NCBI RefSeq assembly: GCF_003334785.1 | Contig: NZ_QOWV01000011.1 | DNA from: Escherichia coli | GTDB lineage: Bacteria; Pseudomonadota; Gammaproteobacteria; Enterobacterales; Enterobacteriaceae | Length of the DNA stretch: 64,000 nt | Reading direction: 5' to 3' (one strand) | Shown here: positions 45,037 to 54,113 of the stretch, piece after piece | Numbering within the stretch: position 1 is the first letter of the stretch | How the letters are laid out: every line of letters starts with the position of its first letter | Program-made: the position numbers and the translations under genes | The notes under the pieces: generated by a model | The model's input: the letters and a program-made list of their open reading frames with translations, nothing else | Database searches by the model: none | What the model was told of the DNA's origin: nothing

Positions 45037-47142
45037 ATGTTACGAAAAAGCAAACTTACAGAGATATATAAAAGGTTTGGTTTTACTGAAGAAAATACAG
45101 GTAACGAAAGTATTGCTGTATATTCTATTAAAACAGGGCACTACCATAACGCGGACATACTTCCACTAAATAATGAGGTTAATGTAAATCAAACCTTTGA
45201 AGAATATAGGCAGTTAGGTTATGCATGTCAAATTAAAAAATATCAGTCTTATGAAGAAGCACATAAGGAATTATTTAATGGCTTCTTTAGCGTCGATTCA
45301 ACTAAAGAAAGGTTGATTAAAGATTATAATACTTTCACAGATTCAATTGTAAAAATTCACTCACCTACTGCAACTTATTCCTACATAAATTCAAAATATT
45401 ACTTAAATGGTGTTATTGGCGAAGCTAATGTTGTTACGGAAATATTAGAGAGAATACAACATAGGCGTCCAATTCTGTTTTTGATTGAGGCTGCAGCCGG
45501 TTTTGGAAAGACTTGCACGGCGTATGAATTATTGAGGGAGATTATAGTTAACAATATAGGGAAAATACCATTATTTTCAGAACTATCAAGGAATAGGCAA
45601 GCAAAAATATTCAGGTATGTACTATTAGATGAAATTGATAGAAGTTTTCCTTTGTTAAGCTCAGCCTTAGTAAGGAATGAAATAAGAGCAGGAAATGTAC
45701 CAGTTATACTTGACGGGTTTGATGAACTATTGCATGAAAGTACAAACGGAATTGAAAATAATTATGAAAAAACAGAGCCAATGCTGGAAACAATAAGTGA
45801 GCTTCTAACTGATAGTGCAAAAGTGGTTTTGACAACTCGAAGAACAGCTATATTTGACGGAGATGAATTCCATCAGTGGATAGCATCACATCAAGAAGAT
45901 TTTGATGTGATAAGAATAAGAATTCATGAACCACAAATTGAAGACTGGCTTCCAGGTCAACGTTTAGATGAAATTTCATCGACAGGATTTCCTCTTAACA
46001 AATTATCAAACCCTGTACTGCTATCATTTCTAAGATGCATCGACGACACCGACTTTAATAAAGTTATAAGCGACCCAACAACTATAGTGAGGAAGTATTT
46101 TGATTCAATGCTTGAGCGAGAAAGAAAAAGACAAGATTTATTAATGTCTATTGAAGATCAATATACTATACTAAAAATAATAGCTGACGACATGGTCGAG
46201 GGTAACTACACATCTGAGTCTAGAGAGTATATATCGTTAGTCATAACTGAAAAGAATCAACAACTCTTGGAGGCTACAAGAAAGCTTTATACTGTAGATG
46301 AAAGACCAACTACTGACGAATTAGTTAATAAATTAGCATCGCATGCTCTATTAGATCGGTCAGGCTCAGAAAACCAAGGTATTGGATTTGTTAATGAATT
46401 TGTTCTTGGTAATTTTGTTTCTGAAAATATTATTAATGATAAGTCAAATGAATGGATTGGTGATAAACGTTTTATAGAACCAGCAGTGCAATCTTATATG
46501 CCGAGGATCGATGATGAAAAAGAATTACTTTGGCATAGCTTAGAGTTTGCTTTATATTTTATGTCAGGTAATGATAAAATCCTTTATAGTCATTTGCTTA
46601 TAGGAAAAGTTCCATTAGATTTAAAAAATGATAGTGTTGAGCAATTGTCTATATCAAAACTTTCTTTAGGCGATATAAATATAATACATGATACTATCTT
46701 TGTTGATTGTTCGTTTTTTAGCAGCATATTTACCTGTGGTAATTATAAAAACGTTACATTCGTGAACTGTTCTTTTATAGATTGTAGTTTTAACGAATTA
46801 AGTGGTAGGGAAGATATTTATTTTTTGGGATGTGAATGTGACAATGATGCTATTAATAAAAAATCTGTCGAGATAAACAGTGAAAATGATCACGATATTA
46901 CAGATTGTGATATTTACATCTTAGAGAAGTTCTGTCCCAGAGGGAGTGTTAGCTATCATAAGCATCGGCCTATAAAAGGCTTATGTTCTAACAACAATCA
47001 ATTTCAGTTAAGTGAAATACTCCATTCTTTAGATAAATTGAGGAAAGACGGTCTTTTACTTACGCCAGACAAGCGTTCGTTCCTTGAACTTAACATGGCA
47101 AGAATATCAGAGATTAAAGCAATTCTTGGGAGGAATTTCTGA
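45037..47142 (+). CDS. STAND/NACHT-type P-loop NTPase with C-terminal pentapeptide-like repeats (candidate sensor)
   Basis: ORF track 45028..47142; start at ATG 45037 with AGGAGG RBS 45024-45029. Walker A AAAGFGKT, Walker B hhhhDGFDE (VPVILDGFDELL), sensor-like VVLTTRRT; C-terminal FVDCSF...FVNCSF...FIDCSF five-residue periodicity. Confidence 0.8.
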   Translation: MLRKSKLTEIYKRFGFTEENTGNESIAVYSIKTGHYHNADILPLNNEVNVNQTFEEYRQLGYACQIKKYQSYEEAHKELFNGFFSVDSTKERLIKDYNTFTDSIVKIHSPTATYSYINSKYYLNGVIGEANVVTEILERIQHRRPILFLIEAAAGFGKTCTAYELLREIIVNNIGKIPLFSELSRNRQAKIFRYVLLDEIDRSFPLLSSALVRNEIRAGNVPVILDGFDELLHESTNGIENNYEKTEPMLETISELLTDSAKVVLTTRRTAIFDGDEFHQWIASHQEDFDVIRIRIHEPQIEDWLPGQRLDEISSTGFPLNKLSNPVLLSFLRCIDDTDFNKVISDPTTIVRKYFDSMLERERKRQDLLMSIEDQYTILKIIADDMVEGNYTSESREYISLVITEKNQQLLEATRKLYTVDERPTTDELVNKLASHALLDRSGSENQGIGFVNEFVLGNFVSENIINDKSNEWIGDKRFIEPAVQSYMPRIDDEKELLWHSLEFALYFMSGNDKILYSHLLIGKVPLDLKNDSVEQLSISKLSLGDINIIHDTIFVDCSFFSSIFTCGNYKNVTFVNCSFIDCSFNELSGREDIYFLGCECDNDAINKKSVEINSENDHDITDCDIYILEKFCPRGSVSYHKHRPIKGLCSNNNQFQLSEILHSLDKLRKDGLLLTPDKRSFLELNMARISEIKAILGRNF

Positions 47143-48047
47143 TGTATAACGGGAATGAATTGCGAATTATTCAAAGTTTGCAAAAAGATATAGAAGATGA
47201 ACTTAATCGTATTGGATTACTTTATCGTTTTTTTTCGAGGACAAAATCAGAAAGCTCAATAATTAAGAAATATGAAAAAGAGCCTAATAAATACTCAGAG
47301 GATGGTAAAAAAATTCAAGACTTATTTGGGGTTAGGATAATATTATATTTTCCTGATGATTTATTTATTGCTCAAAAAACACTGGAGAAATTATTCGAAA
47401 TTGAATCTAAAACCGTAGACGAAACCACGGCTAATCTCTTTGCGGCAACTCGATGCAATTACGTCTTTAAGTTACCAGAAGTATTATCAAATGATAGTGT
47501 CTTATTAAAGAAATATTCTTATATTGATACTACTTTTGAAGTCCAATTTAGAACTATTTTATCTGAAGGATGGCATGAAGTTGAGCATGATCTACGCTAT
47601 AAGTGCAAAGAGGATTGGGTTGAGCATAATGACCTTAGTCGCGCGCTGAATGGAATTTACGCCTCTTTGGAAACATCTGATTGGGGAATAATGAAGTTAT
47701 TTGAGGATTTAGCATATAGAAATTATAAGTCAAGCGCATGGTCCGCTATGCTAAGAAATAAATTAAGATTGAGAATGGACGATAAGCTTGATGAAAAGAT
47801 AATTTCAATAATTAATGAGAAAGAGCTTGGTAAAAAGTTTTATAGAATTGACAGAGATCGTTTGTTATCGTTAATGTTAGATTATAATATTGATATACCA
47901 ATTAATCTTAATAATATAATTTACCTTTGTAATTATTTTTTCATAAAATCTACGGAGCTTCAGGATATAGCCCCTGCTTTAATAATGAAAAAGCTTACAG
48001 ATGCTGATGAAAAATTCAATAAAAATACTATTTTAGCATCTAAATAA
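47142..48047 (+). CDS. RelA/SpoT-homologue (small alarmone synthetase / toxSAS-like) nucleotide pyrophosphokinase (candidate effector)
   Basis: 301-aa ORF; start ATG overlaps the upstream TGA (tgATGa); GGGAGG RBS. Synthetase motifs: RTKSESSIIKKYEK (Syn1-like), DLFGVRIIL (DxxGxR), EVQFRTILSEGWHEVEHDLRYK (ExQxRT...W.E..H...YK). Confidence 0.8.
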   Translation: MYNGNELRIIQSLQKDIEDELNRIGLLYRFFSRTKSESSIIKKYEKEPNKYSEDGKKIQDLFGVRIILYFPDDLFIAQKTLEKLFEIESKTVDETTANLFAATRCNYVFKLPEVLSNDSVLLKKYSYIDTTFEVQFRTILSEGWHEVEHDLRYKCKEDWVEHNDLSRALNGIYASLETSDWGIMKLFEDLAYRNYKSSAWSAMLRNKLRLRMDDKLDEKIISIINEKELGKKFYRIDRDRLLSLMLDYNIDIPINLNNIIYLCNYFFIKSTELQDIAPALIMKKLTDADEKFNKNTILASK

Positions 48048-48103: not shown

Positions 48104-49099
48104 ATTATGTGAAGTGATGATGATAGCAAATCTGCTATCTTTATGGTTGGATGCGAGAAAATATTTTTATCCCGACACAACAACTGGTAATGATAGAAAA
48201 TTTAAACCCAAAAATGCTACAGTAGCCTCAGCTCACAAACGGAGTATAAAGTGGCGGTTACTCTTTAGTGGGAATACTGTAGATAGTTGATAAACTGGGC
48301 TGGATTTTCTTTTCTAACCGAAGGGAAGAAAAGCAAGGGGAACCCAAAGAAACAAGCGCAGCGGCTTCGTAGGGTTAGCCCTTGCTTCTTTTATAATTGG
48401 CATTATTCATTCAAGAACAATAGGATCTTCGCTTGTACAAGCGAAGCTATAATAAAAAATCAATTAATTATTTTAAAAGTATTAAGCAAGAGCCTATTGA
48501 CATTCGTAAAATAAAAGTTATTTTTAATGTATGCCATAAATAAAAAGTTTTATGTCATATGTATCCTGCACTATGTGCAGTTAATGTGCCACTTGTCCCA
48601 TATATGGGAATATTGGAAAGGTTACTTTGTTTTGAAGTAGCCTTTCGTCCTTCAATATTCACGATTACTTATTGCTATTACCAAGTCCAGTCGAATCGAA
48701 GAACATCTTTTATCTGAAACGACTCCTAATACCAGGTTGAAGCCACAATATCTCTCGCATAAGTAGACCAAAGAAAAATTATGATATTAACTATGTGATT
48801 TTTTTTAGTGTTAAGTTGAATAATTATATACTGGAGAGTTTTCTGTACACTACCAATTGCTGGTTCATCTGTTCTGCCGCTGATGTTTCTGACTAATCTC
48901 CCGGTGACACAGAACTGTCCCTCTCTACCAGCCTTTATTCGACTCAATGTCCGGCTGCTGATACGCAGTTATCCCTTCGTATCAATGACTGACTCTTAAA
49001 CGCAATGCTTTGGTTGCTGGCGTATCTGACAGCTTCTTCGGCGTGAAGGTCGTTGTGTAAGTATACTTCTTGGTTTATTTAGGCTATATAAAACCATGA

Positions 49100-49996
49100 C
49101 TATGACTGGCTGTTTTCAGTAAGAGTCTTATCATCCAAAGAATTTATTCTAGAAATTCTTTTTAACTCATTAAGATAATCAACCTCGTTTTCTAAGAACC
49201 AATGAAGAACTTTAGAGTTGCCAAGTAATTTATTAATATATGACTGGATTATAACGAATTTCAACATATCTGAACCATACTCGGTTTGAAGTTTTTTCGT
49301 TTCTTCCGAAGTTGTTGCCATTTCTTGTTCCAGACGAAGTATGGTTTTTTTTATGTCCTTTTTATAGGGAGTGTTTTTCCCTTTATTTACTATCATCGAT
49401 GACGGTGTTGCATCCAAGATGCTCATTGCAAATTTTTTACTATAATTATCAAAATTAATCATTGTACCGACTGCTTCAATTTGACGAATTGGCTTCATTT
49501 TCCTCAAAACGTCAAATGTAGCCTTAGGTATAGGTTTATCAGAAAGTTTCGCAATTACACTTGGATCTATGCCGTTCATCACATTAGCTTTATCTTTTAT
49601 GGCATCAACAGATATGCCCAAAGCAGCACTAAGTTTTTCAATTGATACTTTTGCCAGAGACTTAATTATCATTCTATGTTCTTCAACTACATTTATATGA
49701 TTCACTTGTTTGTTAGGAGTGAAAGCATCATCTATGCTCGAAAGTATACATGGAGCTTTTTCTATATCTAAGTCTTTTAAAGCCTCAACCCTTAAATGGC
49801 CATCAAGTATCTTAGTGACATCTTTATCTTTGTCATAGAATACTATTATTGGTTCAATAATACCCAAGCTTTCGATAGAGGTAACTATTTGATGATATTT
49901 ATGGCTTCGCTTTACGTTTTCTAATAATTCCTTAGATGGAATTAACTTATTAGTTTCCAGGTAAATAAAATTTTTGCCAAAACGTATCTGAATCAT
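49100..49996 (-). CDS. ParB/Srx-domain protein 2 (ParB-like DNA-binding/nuclease fold)
   Basis: 298-aa ORF with ILDGHLRVEAL motif (ParB-box-like DGxxR) and HTH-like LSAALGISVDAIK; start overlaps stop of upstream paralogue (ATGA). Confidence 0.65.
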   Translation of the reverse strand: MIQIRFGKNFIYLETNKLIPSKELLENVKRSHKYHQIVTSIESLGIIEPIIVFYDKDKDVTKILDGHLRVEALKDLDIEKAPCILSSIDDAFTPNKQVNHINVVEEHRMIIKSLAKVSIEKLSAALGISVDAIKDKANVMNGIDPSVIAKLSDKPIPKATFDVLRKMKPIRQIEAVGTMINFDNYSKKFAMSILDATPSSMIVNKGKNTPYKKDIKKTILRLEQEMATTSEETKKLQTEYGSDMLKFVIIQSYINKLLGNSKVLHWFLENEVDYLNELKRISRINSLDDKTLTENSQS

Positions 49997-50889
49997 TTTG
50001 ATACCTCTTTGTTTACTGGGTTTAATATCTGAGATGGTAGTTCTGAAAGATTCTCTTGTTCAAGTATATTTTGAAAGCTTTTATTCATCATTATGATGTT
50101 AAAAATCTCATTTATTATTAGTAGATTGGTTTTTATAAATTTCGAGTTGTTATAAACAGATTTATGTTCAGCGATACTATTTTCATAAAGCTCAATCAAC
50201 TCCTCTGCAGTCATCCTTTTTGATGGTTTGTGATAATAAAATCCGGCTGCTTTTGCACCTTTATTCCCAACTGTTCTTTGATTTAGAATGTATTTTATCT
50301 TTATAATGTCCCGACTTTTTATTAATTTTTTATCATATGCTTCGGTAAGAATATCTTGTGCTTCCTCAGTTTCACATCTTGCAAATTGCACTGCGAGATA
50401 CAGAGGCAAATTACCCCGTTCGACTGCTGAGAGAAGTTTATGCTCTCCCTTATCAAGAAGCATATTAATACTGCTCACCCAGTTCGATGAATATCCAGTA
50501 ATCTCACTTATTTCGGAGTCTGAAAGTCCTCTGATTTTCATGTCTTTAATCACCTGTAATAACTCATTAGAACGTGGTCTTCTCCTTGCAATGTTTTCAA
50601 CTAAACTCATAACGTAAGCATCTTCTTCTGATACATCTCTTATAATTGCTGGAATAATAGTTTCACCTAATGCAACAAGAGCCTCTATTCTCCCTTGACC
50701 ACAAATTAAAGCATATTTGAAATCGTCTTCATCAATAGCTCTTACGCTTATAGGCTTGCTTAATCCTCTTTTTTTTATGCTTTCCTTTATTTCTTCATGC
50801 ACTACCTTATTTCTTGTTCGTGGGTTAAGAAATTTTATTTTTGCAATCTCAATTTGAATTATTGGGAATTCATTTTTTTCAGGCAGCAT
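49993..50889 (-). CDS. ParB/Srx-domain protein 1
   Basis: 298-aa ORF with LICGQGRIEAL motif and ...LVENIARRRP...; overlaps serine recombinase stop by 11 nt. Confidence 0.65.
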   Translation of the reverse strand: MLPEKNEFPIIQIEIAKIKFLNPRTRNKVVHEEIKESIKKRGLSKPISVRAIDEDDFKYALICGQGRIEALVALGETIIPAIIRDVSEEDAYVMSLVENIARRRPRSNELLQVIKDMKIRGLSDSEISEITGYSSNWVSSINMLLDKGEHKLLSAVERGNLPLYLAVQFARCETEEAQDILTEAYDKKLIKSRDIIKIKYILNQRTVGNKGAKAAGFYYHKPSKRMTAEELIELYENSIAEHKSVYNNSKFIKTNLLIINEIFNIIMMNKSFQNILEQENLSELPSQILNPVNKEVSK

Positions 50890-52435
50890 ATAGTTCCCTC
50901 ACTTTCATGCGAGTAATAATTTGTAGAAATTTATCAAGATTATCAAATCTATAGAGATCTAACCGAATGTTGTTTGTTTCCATCATACACATTTTACTAT
51001 ATTCGTTTTCAATCTTTGGTATGATATAAAAATCAAGAGGTGAAATATTTTGTGAATTCATTCGTATAACAATTGTTATGTCTGCTTTCTGTGAGTTATC
51101 AAACCGGACTTTCCATCTAAGTTTACCTGATTTCATATGTATGCATTTAGTAACAAGGACGGAAATTAAAAACTCATCATTGATGTAAAGCATTGGGTAA
51201 TATTTATACTCGTCTATATGACAGTTACTTTTTAATATTTCGCCCTTAAAATCCTCAATTATCTCTGAGTAAAATGATCTTAGTGCTTCATTTATTTGGA
51301 GATAGCTGTAATCATGTTCTGGCTTATAACCAATCAAAGTATATGCTCTTAAAAGACCACCAAATCGGGTTCTATAAACAGAAGATGAAGGGCCTGTATC
51401 ATCTTCATCAATGATAAAGCCTGATAGTTTTCCATTAGATTCTAATTTTTCTTTTAGCTTTTCTAATAGATCTTCATTAGTCAAATGAATGGATCGGAGC
51501 TGAATTATTTCTTGAGCTTTATTATATTTTTTCTTTGAAATAATTGGTTTATATGCCTTGTCACATCTAATCCATTCATGTTTGGGGTTTTTTACAAGCT
51601 TACTTTTTAGTTTAGATGAGGTTTTGTTATATATGTTGTTTCCAATATATTTTTCATTTGTCAAAATTTGATGTATTTTTGCACGAGTCCATGATGTTCC
51701 ATTTTCTGCAGGTATGCTCTGTTCATTTAATCTCTCAGCAATAATGAATTCTGGGACGTTACTATCTATAAAGAGATCATAGATTCTATTTACAATTTTT
51801 ATTTCATTTTTTGGTCCCGGAATTAATATTACCCTATCTGTTTGAATACTCTTTCTTTTGCGGAAATTCAATATTTCTTTAGCTATGCCATTTTCGTCTA
51901 CTAAAAGACGTCTCAGCCCATAACCAGCCATACCGCCTTGATGATAACCAAGCTTTATTAAATTTACTTGCCCTATAAATACCTTTTCAGATAGATTCCT
52001 GCTGTGATATGCAGCACTTGATCTTTTTATATTCAGTATAACAGAGGACTCTAAAGGGAAATCTTTAGTGGGTATAGGTTCGGAACAATATATAAGATCT
52101 ACACCATTTCTTTCAAATAGAAAGGAATAATATGCAGCTTCATCACTATTTTGAAAACGACCAAAACGGCTCACATCATAAAATAATACAGCCTGTATAT
52201 CTATTTTCTTTTGTTCTACATCGCTAAGTAACTGCTGCAAAGAATGCCTGCCTACGATACTGACTCCGCTCTTACCTGCATCATCGTAGGTATAAGCGAT
52301 TTCCATATTGTTCTTTTCAGCATAATCTTTGATATATTCAGACTGATTATGTAAAGAATATTGCTGATGGTCGGTAGACATCCTCAAGTACTGTGCGACC
52401 CTAACTCTATGATTTTTTTCATTTCCGCTAGCCAT
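50879..52435 (-). CDS. Large serine recombinase (resolvase/invertase catalytic domain plus recombinase domain)
   Basis: ORF track 50879..52441 (TTG); ATG at 52433-52435 with GAGG RBS. N-terminal YLRMSTDHQ catalytic-serine motif, ~518 aa. Confidence 0.8.
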   Translation of the reverse strand: MASGNEKNHRVRVAQYLRMSTDHQQYSLHNQSEYIKDYAEKNNMEIAYTYDDAGKSGVSIVGRHSLQQLLSDVEQKKIDIQAVLFYDVSRFGRFQNSDEAAYYSFLFERNGVDLIYCSEPIPTKDFPLESSVILNIKRSSAAYHSRNLSEKVFIGQVNLIKLGYHQGGMAGYGLRRLLVDENGIAKEILNFRKRKSIQTDRVILIPGPKNEIKIVNRIYDLFIDSNVPEFIIAERLNEQSIPAENGTSWTRAKIHQILTNEKYIGNNIYNKTSSKLKSKLVKNPKHEWIRCDKAYKPIISKKKYNKAQEIIQLRSIHLTNEDLLEKLKEKLESNGKLSGFIIDEDDTGPSSSVYRTRFGGLLRAYTLIGYKPEHDYSYLQINEALRSFYSEIIEDFKGEILKSNCHIDEYKYYPMLYINDEFLISVLVTKCIHMKSGKLRWKVRFDNSQKADITIVIRMNSQNISPLDFYIIPKIENEYSKMCMMETNNIRLDLYRFDNLDKFLQIITRMKVRELYAA

Positions 52436-52717
52436 GCACAAAACCTCATGGATGATTCAATACAATGTAGAGGATAAAATTGATCAAATTTTAACCGAAT
52501 TCAACTGTTTTATCATTGATTAGAGCGAATTTGGTAGTTCTTCGAGGTGTATGATAATCGAGAAGAGATGTGAATTATTTAGCTGATATGACCGACAGCT
52601 TTCGTTATGTGGCCTCAAGGTACCCATTTGTAAATGGCTATGCTTAGTCCACATAGGTTAATGGTGTGATCATTAATTCTTCAAATAAATCAAGATAGTT
52701 AACCCATCATGGAAGAG

Positions 52718-53947
52718 TTATGCGGCAATAACTTTGTATTTTTGAGACGAAACATAGTCACTCCACCATTGCATGAGAACCACACGTTCTGTGAGATACT
52801 CTGCACGATTGTAGGCTGCAATTATTTCATCTTTTTTCGAGTGGGCAAGGGCGGCTTCTAAGACATCAGTTCTAAACTTGCCACACTCCTCAGCCGCCGT
52901 TCTAGCGATTGATCGCATACCATGAGCTACAAGCTCACCTCCGAAGCCCATACGGATTATAGCCGCATTAGCTGTTTGTTCATGCATGTGATTGAGTGGA
53001 GCTTTGATACTGGGAAAAACCCACTCTCTATGCCCGCTGATGGCTTTCATTGAATCCAAGACTCGCAAAGATTCTTTGCTCAGTGGAACTTTGTGAGGCT
53101 TCTTCATTTTCATAAACTCCGCCGGGATGTTCCACATGCTGGTTTCTATATCAATATCTGACCATCTTGTGCGAACAGCTTCACCAGGGCGAACCCATGT
53201 GAGAAGTTGCCACTCAATCAGTAGCCTTGTTTCTAAACGGATAGAAGCATTGTTTAGAGCAACCAGGAAGCGGGGGAGTTCGGAAGGGGGTAATGCTGGC
53301 ATATTCTGTTTTTTTGGCTTGCTGAACCGTTGCCCCAGGTTGTCAGCCGGATTGAATTCTATGAGTTCTTCTGTTGCTGCATAGCGGAAAATTTCATTCA
53401 GGCGGGATATGACGCGGCGAAGTGTTTCAAGGACACCTCGTTTTTCTATGGGGTCTAAATGCTGTTTAAGCATTTTAGGGCGAATCTCCTTAATGGGGGT
53501 ATCACCCAACGTTGGAAAGATATTTCTCTCTAGGCTTCGCCAGATGTCGTTAGCATGATCCTGGGAGATGCCTGACGTTTTGACTTTCTCATCAAGCCAC
53601 TTCTTGGCTACTGCTTGAAATGTATGTTCCGTTGCATCCTTAAGGGCATTGGCTTTGTGGGTGTTATGAACTTGTGGGTCTATACCATTTGCAAGCAACG
53701 ACAAGTACTCATCACGTAAAGCTCGTGCCTTCGCAAGTGTAAGGTGAGGATAGGTTCCTAAGCTCACCTTAGTTCGCTTTTTGGTCACAGGCACTGCATA
53801 TCTGAAATACCAATTTTTCTTTCCTCCCTTCGCTAAGGGGGCGATTCGCAGGAGCAAACCATCGCCGTCAAAAAGGTTAACCTCTTTCTCGGCAGGTTTG
53901 GTGCTTTTGATTTCAGTGTCAGTGAGCTTCTTAGCGATTTTTGCCAT
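52718..53947 (-). CDS. P4-type tyrosine integrase (phage integrase family)
   Basis: ORF track 52718..54091 runs into the ssrA terminator; start placed at MAKIAKKLTDTEIK (ATG 53945-53947, 409 aa). C-terminal catalytic HxxR (VAHGMRS) and Tyr (AAYNRAEY); adjacent to ssrA. Confidence 0.85.
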   Translation of the reverse strand: MAKIAKKLTDTEIKSTKPAEKEVNLFDGDGLLLRIAPLAKGGKKNWYFRYAVPVTKKRTKVSLGTYPHLTLAKARALRDEYLSLLANGIDPQVHNTHKANALKDATEHTFQAVAKKWLDEKVKTSGISQDHANDIWRSLERNIFPTLGDTPIKEIRPKMLKQHLDPIEKRGVLETLRRVISRLNEIFRYAATEELIEFNPADNLGQRFSKPKKQNMPALPPSELPRFLVALNNASIRLETRLLIEWQLLTWVRPGEAVRTRWSDIDIETSMWNIPAEFMKMKKPHKVPLSKESLRVLDSMKAISGHREWVFPSIKAPLNHMHEQTANAAIIRMGFGGELVAHGMRSIARTAAEECGKFRTDVLEAALAHSKKDEIIAAYNRAEYLTERVVLMQWWSDYVSSQKYKVIAA

Positions 53948-53990
53948 GTTTGGGACCCTCATGTTTTGGACCCTTTGTGTTGGGTCCCAA
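53945..53990. promoter_or_regulatory. Repeat array in integrase 5' region: CATGTTTGGGACCCT, CATGTTTTGGACCCT and inverted TGGGTCCCA
   Basis: ccatgtttgggaccctcatgttttggaccctttgtgttgggtcccaaaaag between ssrA and the integrase start. Confidence 0.55.
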
Positions 53991-54044
53991 AAAGGGTGCC
54001 ATAACGAGTAGATTCTAGCAATTCTCGGTAGACTACTATAGACG

Positions 54045-54079
54045 TAAAAAAGCCCGCAAGGCTGGTTCCATGCGGGCTT
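54045..54079 (-). terminator. ssrA rho-independent terminator
   Basis: Hairpin aagcccgca / tgcgggctt with 12-nt loop, followed on the minus strand by T-run (A-run 54045-54051 on plus). Confidence 0.75.
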
Positions 54080-54113
54080 GATAGACTTCACTGAACTTCA
54101 ATATATCAAAAAT

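Follow-up and report, generated by a model that had tools for sequence, protein, structure and literature searches.

Bacterial NLR-like proteins have been studied as ancestors or analogues of the innate immune receptors of animals and plants, and to our knowledge those that have been characterised carry their effector in the same polypeptide. Here we describe two adjacent genes of Escherichia coli, found in a 64,000-nucleotide stretch of contig NZ_QOWV01000011.1 (assembly GCF_003334785.1; the whole stretch is called the window below), in which a NACHT-type nucleoside triphosphatase (NTPase), referred to as the sensor, is followed by a separate RelA/SpoT-type synthetase, referred to as the effector. 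Taking the explanation as a whole, we consider it probable that the two genes form an NLR-like anti-phage system, residing on a mobilisable island integrated at ssrA, and that the synthetase gene supplies its effector half.

Several described systems bear closely on this pair. Kibby et al. (bioRxiv 10.1101/2022.07.19.500537; later Cell 2023) assigned proteins with the arrangement NA-iREase2, NACHT and Pentapeptide to bNACHT clade 15, with examples from V. cholerae (WP_142737953) and Paenibacillus daejeonensis (WP_020618620), and found protection against phage for many bNACHTs. Among the effector domains fused to bNACHTs they name, in their supplementary discussion, alarmone synthetases; their table contains a Tox-RelA, NACHT and Pentapeptide fusion, and by their account the bNACHT genes they tested were rarely in operons, those operons being poorly conserved. 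The tested members of clade 15 were bNACHT09 (TIR-NACHT), 34 and 69, and the NA-iREase2 entries carry no bNACHT number. On the side of the synthetases, CapRel is self-sensing, with a C-terminal domain that auto-inhibits the enzyme (PMC9712102), and type I PANGU combines a YejK-like nucleoid protein, Pag1A, with Pag1B, a toxic small alarmone synthetase (toxSAS) of the GRel type; here a separate sensor turns an inert GRel tetramer into an active complex, with production of pppGpp and depletion of nucleoside triphosphates (NTPs) (10.64898/2026.04.06.716658). Neither GRel nor FpRel is mentioned as a subfamily name in the text of Jimmy et al.

The effector gene, at 47142-48047, had been read in the original prediction as encoding a RelA/SpoT protein with a complete synthetase motif set. 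The listing of open reading frames has at exactly these positions an ATG-started frame of 301 amino acids (aa), with all three of the motif strings cited for it (FSRTKSESSIIKKYEK, QDLFGVRIILY and FEVQFRTILSEGWHEVEHDLRYK), and the identification as a synthetase-only protein is backed by Pfam, sequence and fold. Its principal features are as follows.

47142..48047, + strand: effector gene, RelA/SpoT-family synthetase-only protein of 301 aa, WP_000282312.1 (open reading frame, Pfam, RefSeq)
47142..47612, + strand: synthetase (pyrophosphokinase) domain, residues 1-157 (Pfam E 7.8e-15; fold matches)
47238..47270, + strand: ATP-donor motif binding phosphate and adenine, R33-T-K35...K43 (aligned to RelP R78, K80 and K88; invariant in 79/79)
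47319..47336, + strand: Mg-binding aspartate and second adenine-sandwich arginine, D60-LFGV-R65 (aligned to RelP D107 and R112; invariant)
47538..47603, + strand: catalytic motif E133-V-Q135-F-R137-T...E142-G-W-H-E146...H149-D...R152-Y-K154 (aligned to RelP E174, Q176 and R178; invariant)

PF04607 (RelA_SpoT) matches residues 32-157 at E 7.8e-15, covering model positions 1-112 of 113, and is the sole Pfam match to the protein at E <=10, with no HD hydrolase, TGS or ACT domain. A phmmer search with the effector matched the solved small alarmone synthetases (SAS) RelP and RelQ at E 2e-5, at an identity of ~18-23%, and a 42-sequence family profile sharpened the RelQ/RelP match to E 1.4e-9; RelQ and RelP were the only ones found, no solved toxSAS structure being matched by sequence at E <=1. 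The NCBIfam model for the GTP diphosphokinase YjbM stayed below threshold (30.6 bits against a cut-off of 320), so that the protein is not a RelQ equivalog. NCBIfam hits to AbiGI and HalA were also considered as identities for the pair and rejected, since their scores are far under threshold and are probably due to the pentapeptide repeats and to a nucleotidyltransferase core held in common. An AlphaFold2 model built on the family alignment (mean predicted local distance difference test score, pLDDT, 85.8; predicted template-modelling score 0.81) shows a nucleotidyltransferase-type alpha/beta SYNTH fold with structural matches to RelQ, RelP, Rel and SpoT. The effector is a genuine RelA/SpoT-type synthetase-only protein whose resemblance to this family is not by chance; Pfam and fold both place its motifs in RelA_SpoT and not in a different nucleotidyltransferase family, the alternative that the original prediction had itself raised.

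Conservation of the catalytic residues, fixed beforehand as a point on which that prediction would stand or fall, holds throughout the family. The donor and catalytic residues, assigned from an HMMER alignment with RelP of S. aureus, stay invariant in 42 homologues at 48-85% identity, and again in 79 complete homologues drawn from 80 species-representative genomes, with identities down to ~38% and a span covering Gamma-, Beta- and Deltaproteobacteria, Campylobacterota, Bacteroidota, Firmicutes, Myxococcota and Cyanobacteria. The invariant set comprises R33, K35, S39, K43, Y51, D60, R65, D73 and D129, together with E133, Q135, R137, E142-E146, H149, D150, R152, Y153 and K154. The effector is almost certainly catalytically competent, and its predicted activity would be the transfer of pyrophosphate from ATP to an acceptor.

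The gene directly upstream encodes a protein of a different kind, with the following parts.

45028..47142, + strand: sensor gene, NACHT (NLR-like STAND) NTPase, 704 aa from GTG 45028 (open reading frame, Pfam, RefSeq name)
45028..45405, + strand: NA-iREase2 domain, residues 1-126, a restriction endonuclease (REase) fold lacking catalytic residues (PF22723, E 3.2e-33)
45490..45513, + strand: Walker A motif (P-loop), AAAGFGKT, residues 155-162 (G158, G160, K161 and T162 at least 95% conserved in 54 orthologues)
45703..45726, + strand: Walker B motif, VILDGFDE, residues 226-233 (D229, G230, F231, D232 and E233 at least 95% conserved)
46528..47139, + strand: variable C-terminal region, residues 501-704, with pentapeptide repeats (~555-616) followed by a basic tail (weak Pfam Pentapeptide_4 match)

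RefSeq starts this protein at ATG 45037 (701 aa; WP_000944877.1, "NACHT domain-containing protein"). The Pfam NACHT match is weak by itself (E 0.008), but the assignment holds because of the NA-iREase2 match, the RefSeq naming and the GxGKT and DGFDE motifs. The NTPase motifs are intact. The N-terminal domain, which belongs to PF22723 (NACHT-associated inactive restriction endonuclease 2), is dead as a nuclease: no acidic/lysine catalytic triad is conserved among the 54 orthologues, and the positions conserved at >=95% (L82, F83, F86, F87, Y100, Y117 and Y119) are all hydrophobic or aromatic. The C-terminal region is the least conserved of the protein, with block identities of 0.26-0.45 against 0.6-0.73 in the NTPase core, and its tail has an isoelectric point (pI) of ~9.3. 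Its pentapeptide segment (46690-46875, residues 555-616) is weakly matched by the NCBIfam model of HalA, the Hailong effector (E 5.5e-4; 19 bits, the cut-off being 250), in all likelihood through nothing more than similarity of repeats. Read from its sequence, the layout is that of an NLR-like switch with a variable sensor part and no weapon of its own. The usual logic of an effector module, an NTPase switch and a variable C-terminal sensor is present, with the effector supplied in trans; we propose that the NA-iREase2 domain, in the slot where bNACHT effectors normally sit, serves as an adaptor, and that the variable C-terminal region is the ligand-sensing part.

The two genes, which together occupy ~3.2 kb, are joined as an operon would be.

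47128..47144, + strand: translational-coupling junction, with the Shine-Dalgarno sequence GGGAGG (47128-47133) inside the sensor gene and the overlap TGATG (read from the sequence)
44908..44936, + strand: promoter-like CTTACA-17-TATTAT, ~90 nucleotides (nt) upstream of the sensor, a candidate operon promoter (consensus scan)
48122..48139, + strand: terminator-like hairpin 75 nt past the effector stop, a candidate operon end (matched by consensus only, with a 7-bp stem and T-rich tail)

The sensor stop TGA (47140-47142) shares a base with the effector ATG (47142-47144), and the Shine-Dalgarno sequence lies 8 nt upstream; the promoter-like site matches at 9/12 positions, and such sites are frequent in the local AT-rich DNA. 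The split pair is conserved far beyond E. coli. When a single genome was scanned for each of 100,044 species, 187 loci contained a relative of the effector, in a family of ~180 clusters at 50% identity, and the best 80 of the 187 were analysed. A full-length NACHT homologue stands directly upstream on the same strand in 58 of these 80 species loci, with sensor identities of 29-99%; the paired genes overlap by 1-22 nt in 36 of the 58, and the gap is <=5 nt in another 17. The same abutting gene order recurs in Pseudomonas spp., P. aeruginosa, Vibrio parahaemolyticus and Cellvibrio, and the clade 15 protein of P. daejeonensis (WP_020618620) corresponds to one of the scanned loci (L030). The upstream NTPase had been suspected as a functional partner, and this operon conservation strongly backs that suspicion. 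No third conserved gene was seen across the 80 loci. A Mrr_cat/NA-iREase1 gene was considered as a third member of the system and rejected, being found in one Pseudomonas lineage only and absent from the 80 loci. The gene concerned (L002:2993-3859) lies immediately upstream of the NACHT gene, encodes a Mrr_cat/NA-iREase1 domain with a topoisomerase-type zinc ribbon and matches the Mrr-like nucleases ZorD, type IV REase and PDC-S02 in PADLOC.

Our proposed model of how the pair acts is as follows. The variable pentapeptide-repeat C-terminus of the sensor would recognise an infection cue, upon which the intact NACHT NTPase would oligomerise, the dead REase-fold domain at its N-terminus acting as an adaptor and not as a weapon. 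The effector would stay inactive until the assembled sensor engages it, probably through a family-specific C-terminal helical domain, and would then pass pyrophosphate from ATP on to an acceptor, for which a free nucleotide is the likeliest candidate. The resulting (p)ppGpp- or (p)ppApp-like alarmone, together with the draining of NTP pools, would shut down growth and so abort the infection.

A role in defence is suggested by the patchy occurrence of the pair in E. coli, by its island with integrase and relaxase, by decayed REase, AbiD and Mrr-like neighbours, and by the kinship of the sensor with bNACHT clade 15. The window is chromosomal E. coli DNA, and the pair occurs at 99-100% identity in 76 of 5,426 complete E. 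coli genomes (1.4%), always on the chromosome and under generic annotation. Its surroundings in the window are mobile and defence-like.

52718-54091 and 54114-54476, - strand: tyrosine integrase and ssrA tmRNA gene, the island integration site (RefSeq and open reading frame listing)
43925..44197, - strand: remnant of a truncated type II restriction endonuclease (DUF4928), an 89-aa open reading frame directly upstream of the operon (PADLOC REase_II)

The pair sits in a low-GC block of ~24-54 kb (GC 0.32-0.46 against ~0.5-0.59 in the flanks), bounded by ssrA and the tyrosine integrase. Also in the block are a serine recombinase, a relaxase and two genes of ParB type, and the ssrA island is probably mobilisable. 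The endonuclease remnant matches REase_II at E 1.5e-41 over profile positions 215-301 of 331 only, in its C-terminal third, RefSeq annotates DUF4928 with pseudogene fragments, and no cognate methyltransferase was seen near it. Elsewhere, the P. aeruginosa pair adjoins AbiD and an integrase, and another Pseudomonas pair adjoins a Mrr-like gene. Relatives occur on a few plasmids (for example in Yersinia, at 77% identity), and carriage by phages is essentially nil, with one partial match at 29% identity in 50,697 phage records.

What would the enzyme modify? The donor side of the active site follows the family canon, and the acceptor side departs from it at one loop.

47439..47459, + strand: remodelled acceptor loop F100-A-A-T-R104-C-N106, in place of the canonical G-loop K-x-N-G-Y (F100 and N106 invariant; R104 in 77/79)

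The G-loop tyrosine stacks on the acceptor base, and its replacement is fatal to activity in FaRel2 (Y128A; 10.1101/2021.04.30.441581), CapRel (Y155A; PMC9712102) and Pag1B (Y129A; 10.64898/2026.04.06.716658). The loop of the present family has the consensus F100-x-[P/A/V]-x-R104-x-N106 and is kept, as F-x-P/A-x-R-x-N, from E. coli to Blautia. In the HMMER alignment Y107 of the E. coli effector pairs with RelP Y151; among the 58 NACHT-linked members position 107 is leucine in 36, tyrosine in nine, isoleucine in seven and phenylalanine in three, methionine also occurring. When the family profile is set against four solved SAS, RelP Y151 falls opposite F100 (one target) or T103 (the others), the register being uncertain, and no alignment register supplies a conserved tyrosine, of which there is none at residues 100-111 in the 79 homologues. 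The low pLDDT at residues 91-100 of the model suggests a flexible, mobile substrate loop. From these alignments we conclude that the active site is canonical in its donor half and remodelled in its acceptor half, and that the substrate-acceptor site appears unlike that of every characterised enzyme of the family. The motif set had been described as complete, which is right for the donor and catalytic motifs; the acceptor G-loop is not canonical, and its tyrosine is not conserved.

The second departure is the C-terminal domain.

47613..48044, + strand: orphan C-terminal all-alpha domain, residues 158-301, with the conserved basic residues K196, K207, R209, R211 and R238

What had been called an unassigned extension of ~120 aa is in fact about 140 aa long, well conserved, all-alpha and confidently modelled (pLDDT 94.4 in the predicted structure). 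The claim that the protein has no hydrolase or regulatory domains is correct as to HD, TGS and ACT and overlooks this conserved folded domain, the obvious regulatory candidate; in the model it presents itself as a candidate for regulation or docking. In all, the original prediction was largely right, and the complete motif set and the missing regulatory domain are where it fell short. The domain is integral to the enzyme family, since it is also found in relatives without a NACHT gene and in fused relatives. In the NACHT-linked members it is basic (median pI 8.8), and K207, R209 and R238 are invariant. At least 23 representative clusters encode proteins of 590-800 aa in which the two-domain module is followed by a conserved ~300-aa region with no Pfam match (for example P0188, P0199, P0201 and P0216). 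In single cases the module is followed by AAA_28 and CYTH (P0224) or by NUDIX (P0269, E 7e-17); NUDIX and CYTH domains act on nucleoside polyphosphates. The sampled neighbourhoods of the fused forms look housekeeping-like, with cobW in one and GGDEF/EAL in another.

The relatives that stand alone are informative about both regulation and product. A NACHT gene is absent from 13 loci with enough upstream sequence, ~18% of such loci. In about ten Blautia species (loci L074-L078, L080-L084 and L089) the homologue has its place in the core genome, flanked by divergent trxA/trxB and by rplM-rpsI, and no NACHT gene accompanies it. It has 331 aa and both domains, with ~43% identity over residues 13-284 (for example L074:5929-6924), and no candidate antitoxin or small alarmone hydrolase (SAH) was seen near it; the protein has the look of a standalone enzyme, either ancestral or domesticated. 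A rough neighbour-joining tree, distance-based only, places the NACHT-less genes in three clades (Blautia; Oscillospiraceae/Clostridiales; Prevotella/Bacteroidaceae), each nested among NACHT-linked sequences, which suggests repeated loss of the sensor. In one NACHT-less Prevotella locus the product of the gene upstream (L091:1197-3554) is 785 aa long, includes HAMP/PP2C-phosphatase (SiaA-like) regions as well as RsbW-like kinase regions, and may be an alternative regulator.

Judged on such features, the product divides about evenly between a nucleotide alarmone and everything else, with tRNA or RNA a clearly weaker candidate and a new acceptor slightly weaker again; leaving the choice of activity open, as had been done before us, was correct. 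A free nucleotide is favoured by the acidity of the synthetase domain (pI 5.36 against a family median of ~5.9; net charge about -1.5), by the NUDIX and CYTH fusions, by the alarmone-making RelQ and RelP, not CapRel or Tas1, as closest solved relatives in sequence and fold and by the unpartnered core-genome homologues. The main competitor is a tRNA pyrophosphokinase like FaRel2, PhRel2 and CapRel, which would modify the 3' CCA adenosine and block aminoacylation and translation. This is the chemistry of four of the five toxSAS subfamilies tested, with no sequence signature that would exclude it (10.1101/2021.04.30.441581), and the basic C-terminal domain, with its median pI of 8.8 and invariant K207, R209 and R238, could hold an RNA backbone. 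FaRel2-type enzymes that target tRNA, however, hold the acceptor stem by a basic cluster (10.1101/2021.04.30.441581), and the synthetase domain here is acidic, not basic; the tyrosine that stacks on the CCA adenine (FaRel2 Y128, CapRel Y155) is not conserved, the NUDIX and CYTH fusions point to small-nucleotide chemistry, the Blautia homologues stand in the core genome with neither antitoxin nor SAH, and the closest solved sequence relatives are RelQ and RelP. We therefore regard a tRNA target as possible and on balance doubtful. Somewhat more doubtful still, and suggested by the loop together with the C-terminal domain, is an acceptor used by no characterised RelA/SpoT homologue (RSH) enzyme. 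Such an acceptor, which we entertain tentatively, would differ both from the CCA end of tRNA and from guanine or adenine nucleotides bound in the known way. If it were real, the NACHT sensor would control a new nucleotide signal or toxin through a separate enzyme that a dead nuclease domain brings in, an arrangement similar to the recruitment of caspases by eukaryotic NLRs via adaptors.

The direction of control could also be the reverse of that in our model, the NACHT protein restraining a constitutively active synthetase, as in a toxin-antitoxin (TA) pair, until a trigger or loss of the sensor frees it. Overlapping, tightly coupled genes are typical of such pairs, and toxSAS were first described as the toxins of two-gene TA systems (10.1101/2021.04.30.441581). 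Yet two-domain homologues at ~40% identity live alone in at least three nested clades with no neighbouring neutraliser. The stable retention of these NACHT-less relatives, nested among paired clades, indicates that the enzyme alone is tolerated, which argues for an effector inactive by default until the sensor switches it on, not for a restrained constitutive toxin. A STAND NTPase of 700 aa with invariant Walker motifs and variable repeats resembles an assembling switch more than a stoichiometric antidote, and the SAS of PANGU and CapRel are intrinsically off and then switched on, so that we consider restraint by the sensor unlikely. Least probable of all is a non-immune stress-signalling role, in which the STAND NTPase would regulate a small alarmone synthetase for host physiology: it would suit the housekeeping sites of the Blautia relatives (trxA/trxB and rplM-rpsI), the fused forms among metabolic genes and the housekeeping nature of RelQ and RelP, the nearest characterised enzymes, but it sits badly with the patchy occurrence of the paired form (1.4% of E. 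coli genomes), with its carriage by integrative islands and some plasmids, with its restriction or Abi neighbours, with its place in a NACHT clade whose tested members defend against phage, and with a sensor most variable at its C-terminus, as expected under arms-race pressure.

Several points weigh against the reading of the pair as a defence system in which the sensor docks onto and activates a nucleotide-modifying enzyme. The proposed defence role comes from context and family. The ~18% of loci without a NACHT gene imply that the enzyme also works outside such a system. In PADLOC no model matched the sensor, and the effector gave only a weak partial match to the candidate PDC-S33 (E 8e-5, residues 8-84); literature searches on the sensor and effector accessions, on toxSAS with NACHT and on iREase with NACHT and SpoT found no report. 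The proposed docking mode is without support, since no shared adaptor domain was detected and the charges are not clearly complementary. A shared adaptor of the effector-associated domain (EAD) kind (Kaur et al. 2020) on sensor and effector was tried and rejected, hhalign comparison of the C-terminal and N-terminal domains of the effector with five regions of the NACHT protein giving probabilities <2%, and the net charges of the C-terminal domain and of the sensor regions are small and overlapping. As to the product, the stacking tyrosine that is essential in every characterised enzyme is not conserved in the effector family, and the acceptor may for that reason be an undescribed one; the conserved basic cluster (K196, K207, R209, R211 and R238) could bind RNA; and Kurata et al. 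found no sequence signature that separates tRNA-using from nucleotide-using SAS (10.1101/2021.04.30.441581). What evidence there is leans towards a nucleotide product but is indirect, and net charge is a crude proxy for a surface patch.

The island holds further genes beyond the pair and its immediate neighbours. Between the operon and ssrA, on the - strand at 49100-52441, two tandem overlapping genes for ParB/RepB/Spo0J-like proteins of 298 aa each follow a 520-aa serine recombinase and adjoin the tyrosine integrase. To find such a module on an integrative island is unusual. The N-terminal part of the first ParB-like protein weakly matches PADLOC MTase_II (E 4.5e-6). On the other side of the operon lie, also on the - strand, a gene for a 317-aa ankyrin-repeat protein (41935-42888) with a weak PADLOC match to PDC-M72A (E 3e-8, residues 13-98), followed by two small AT-rich open reading frames without matches, and a 409-aa relaxase/mobilisation protein with a (Pro-Val)n repeat and a small upstream partner (40100-41733). 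A tRNA gene with a CAT anticodon (27889-27964, + strand), called tRNA-Met by ARAGORN and tRNA-Ile by RefSeq for the equivalent gene in a related genome, is found near the left edge of the 30-kb low-GC block (24000-54000), which may be two adjacent islands rather than one.

If the proposed model is true, the pair offers a simple bacterial model for the recruitment of an effector by an NLR, in which a NACHT protein with a dead effector slot drives a separate enzyme, and it adds a third mode of control for RelA/SpoT-type weapons beside self-sensing (CapRel) and release of a nucleoid protein (PANGU). Given the unusual acceptor site of a widespread family, the repertoire of RSH reactions may be wider than known. 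Core-genome genes of gut Firmicutes, Blautia among them, belong to the family, and the alarmone metabolism of these bacteria would be affected.

How does the pair compare with the systems already described? The sensor has the same architecture as the NA-iREase2, NACHT and Pentapeptide proteins of bNACHT clade 15, its Walker motifs intact; what sets it apart is a catalytically dead domain at the N-terminus and an effector encoded by a separate, very strongly conserved partner gene. Among the tested bNACHTs, bNACHT69 was considered as a counterpart, being alike by domain coordinates, and set aside as a 2,482-nt single-gene clone with a different N-terminus. The parts are known and a NACHT-RelA association has been noted; for a conserved split with an apparently dead REase domain and a trans-encoded SAS we found neither a description nor a report of any test. 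RelQ and RelP (PDB 5DEC, 5DED, 6EWZ and 6FGK) are the closest solved relatives of the effector by sequence (profile E 1e-9 to 1e-6) and by fold, and are likewise synthetase-only, with identical donor-site and catalytic residues. They have a K-x-N-G-Y G-loop and a short C-terminal tetramerisation helix, whereas in the effector family the loop is F-x-P-x-R-x-N and the C-terminal part a helical domain of 140 aa, and RelQ and RelP are core-genome genes with no link to a STAND NTPase. Tas1 and FaRel, which synthesise (pp)pApp, are synthetase-only RSH weapons that drain ATP, but their structural match to the effector is weaker than that of RelQ and RelP, and their partners are of types not found here, Tas1 being a secreted effector of the type VI secretion system whose partner is an immunity protein, and FaRel being a TA toxin paired with an SAH antitoxin. 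In the same vein, the toxSAS arrangement with a small cognate antitoxin or SAH (Jimmy et al. 2020) is replaced here by a NACHT NTPase of ~700 aa as neighbour.

The comparison with toxSAS and CapRel drawn in the original prediction is apt. CapRel likewise combines a synthetase-only RelA/SpoT domain with a non-catalytic C-terminal domain, its adenine-sandwich arginines R79 and R116 correspond to R33 and R65 of the effector, and it acts in abortive-infection defence, off until a phage cue appears (PMC9712102), as we propose for the pair. It differs in targeting tRNA and in needing its G-loop Y155, for which the effector has no conserved equivalent; the effector was also examined for the CapRel-type C-terminal pseudo-zinc-finger antitoxin/sensor domain with a YXXY hinge, and this was absent. 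The closest mechanistic precedent for the proposed model is PANGU, a two-gene defence operon in which a separate sensor activates an SAS, and Pag1B, like the effector, joins an N-terminal synthetase to a C-terminal domain, regulatory in Pag1B. The PANGU sensor, however, is a DNA-clamping nucleoid-associated protein and not a STAND NTPase; the C-terminal domain of Pag1B is an acidic DNA mimic, that of the effector being basic in the paired members; and Pag1B keeps the G-loop tyrosine (Y129) that the effector family does not. What is new here is a variant that brings together NLR-like STAND defence and toxSAS effectors, not a separate category.

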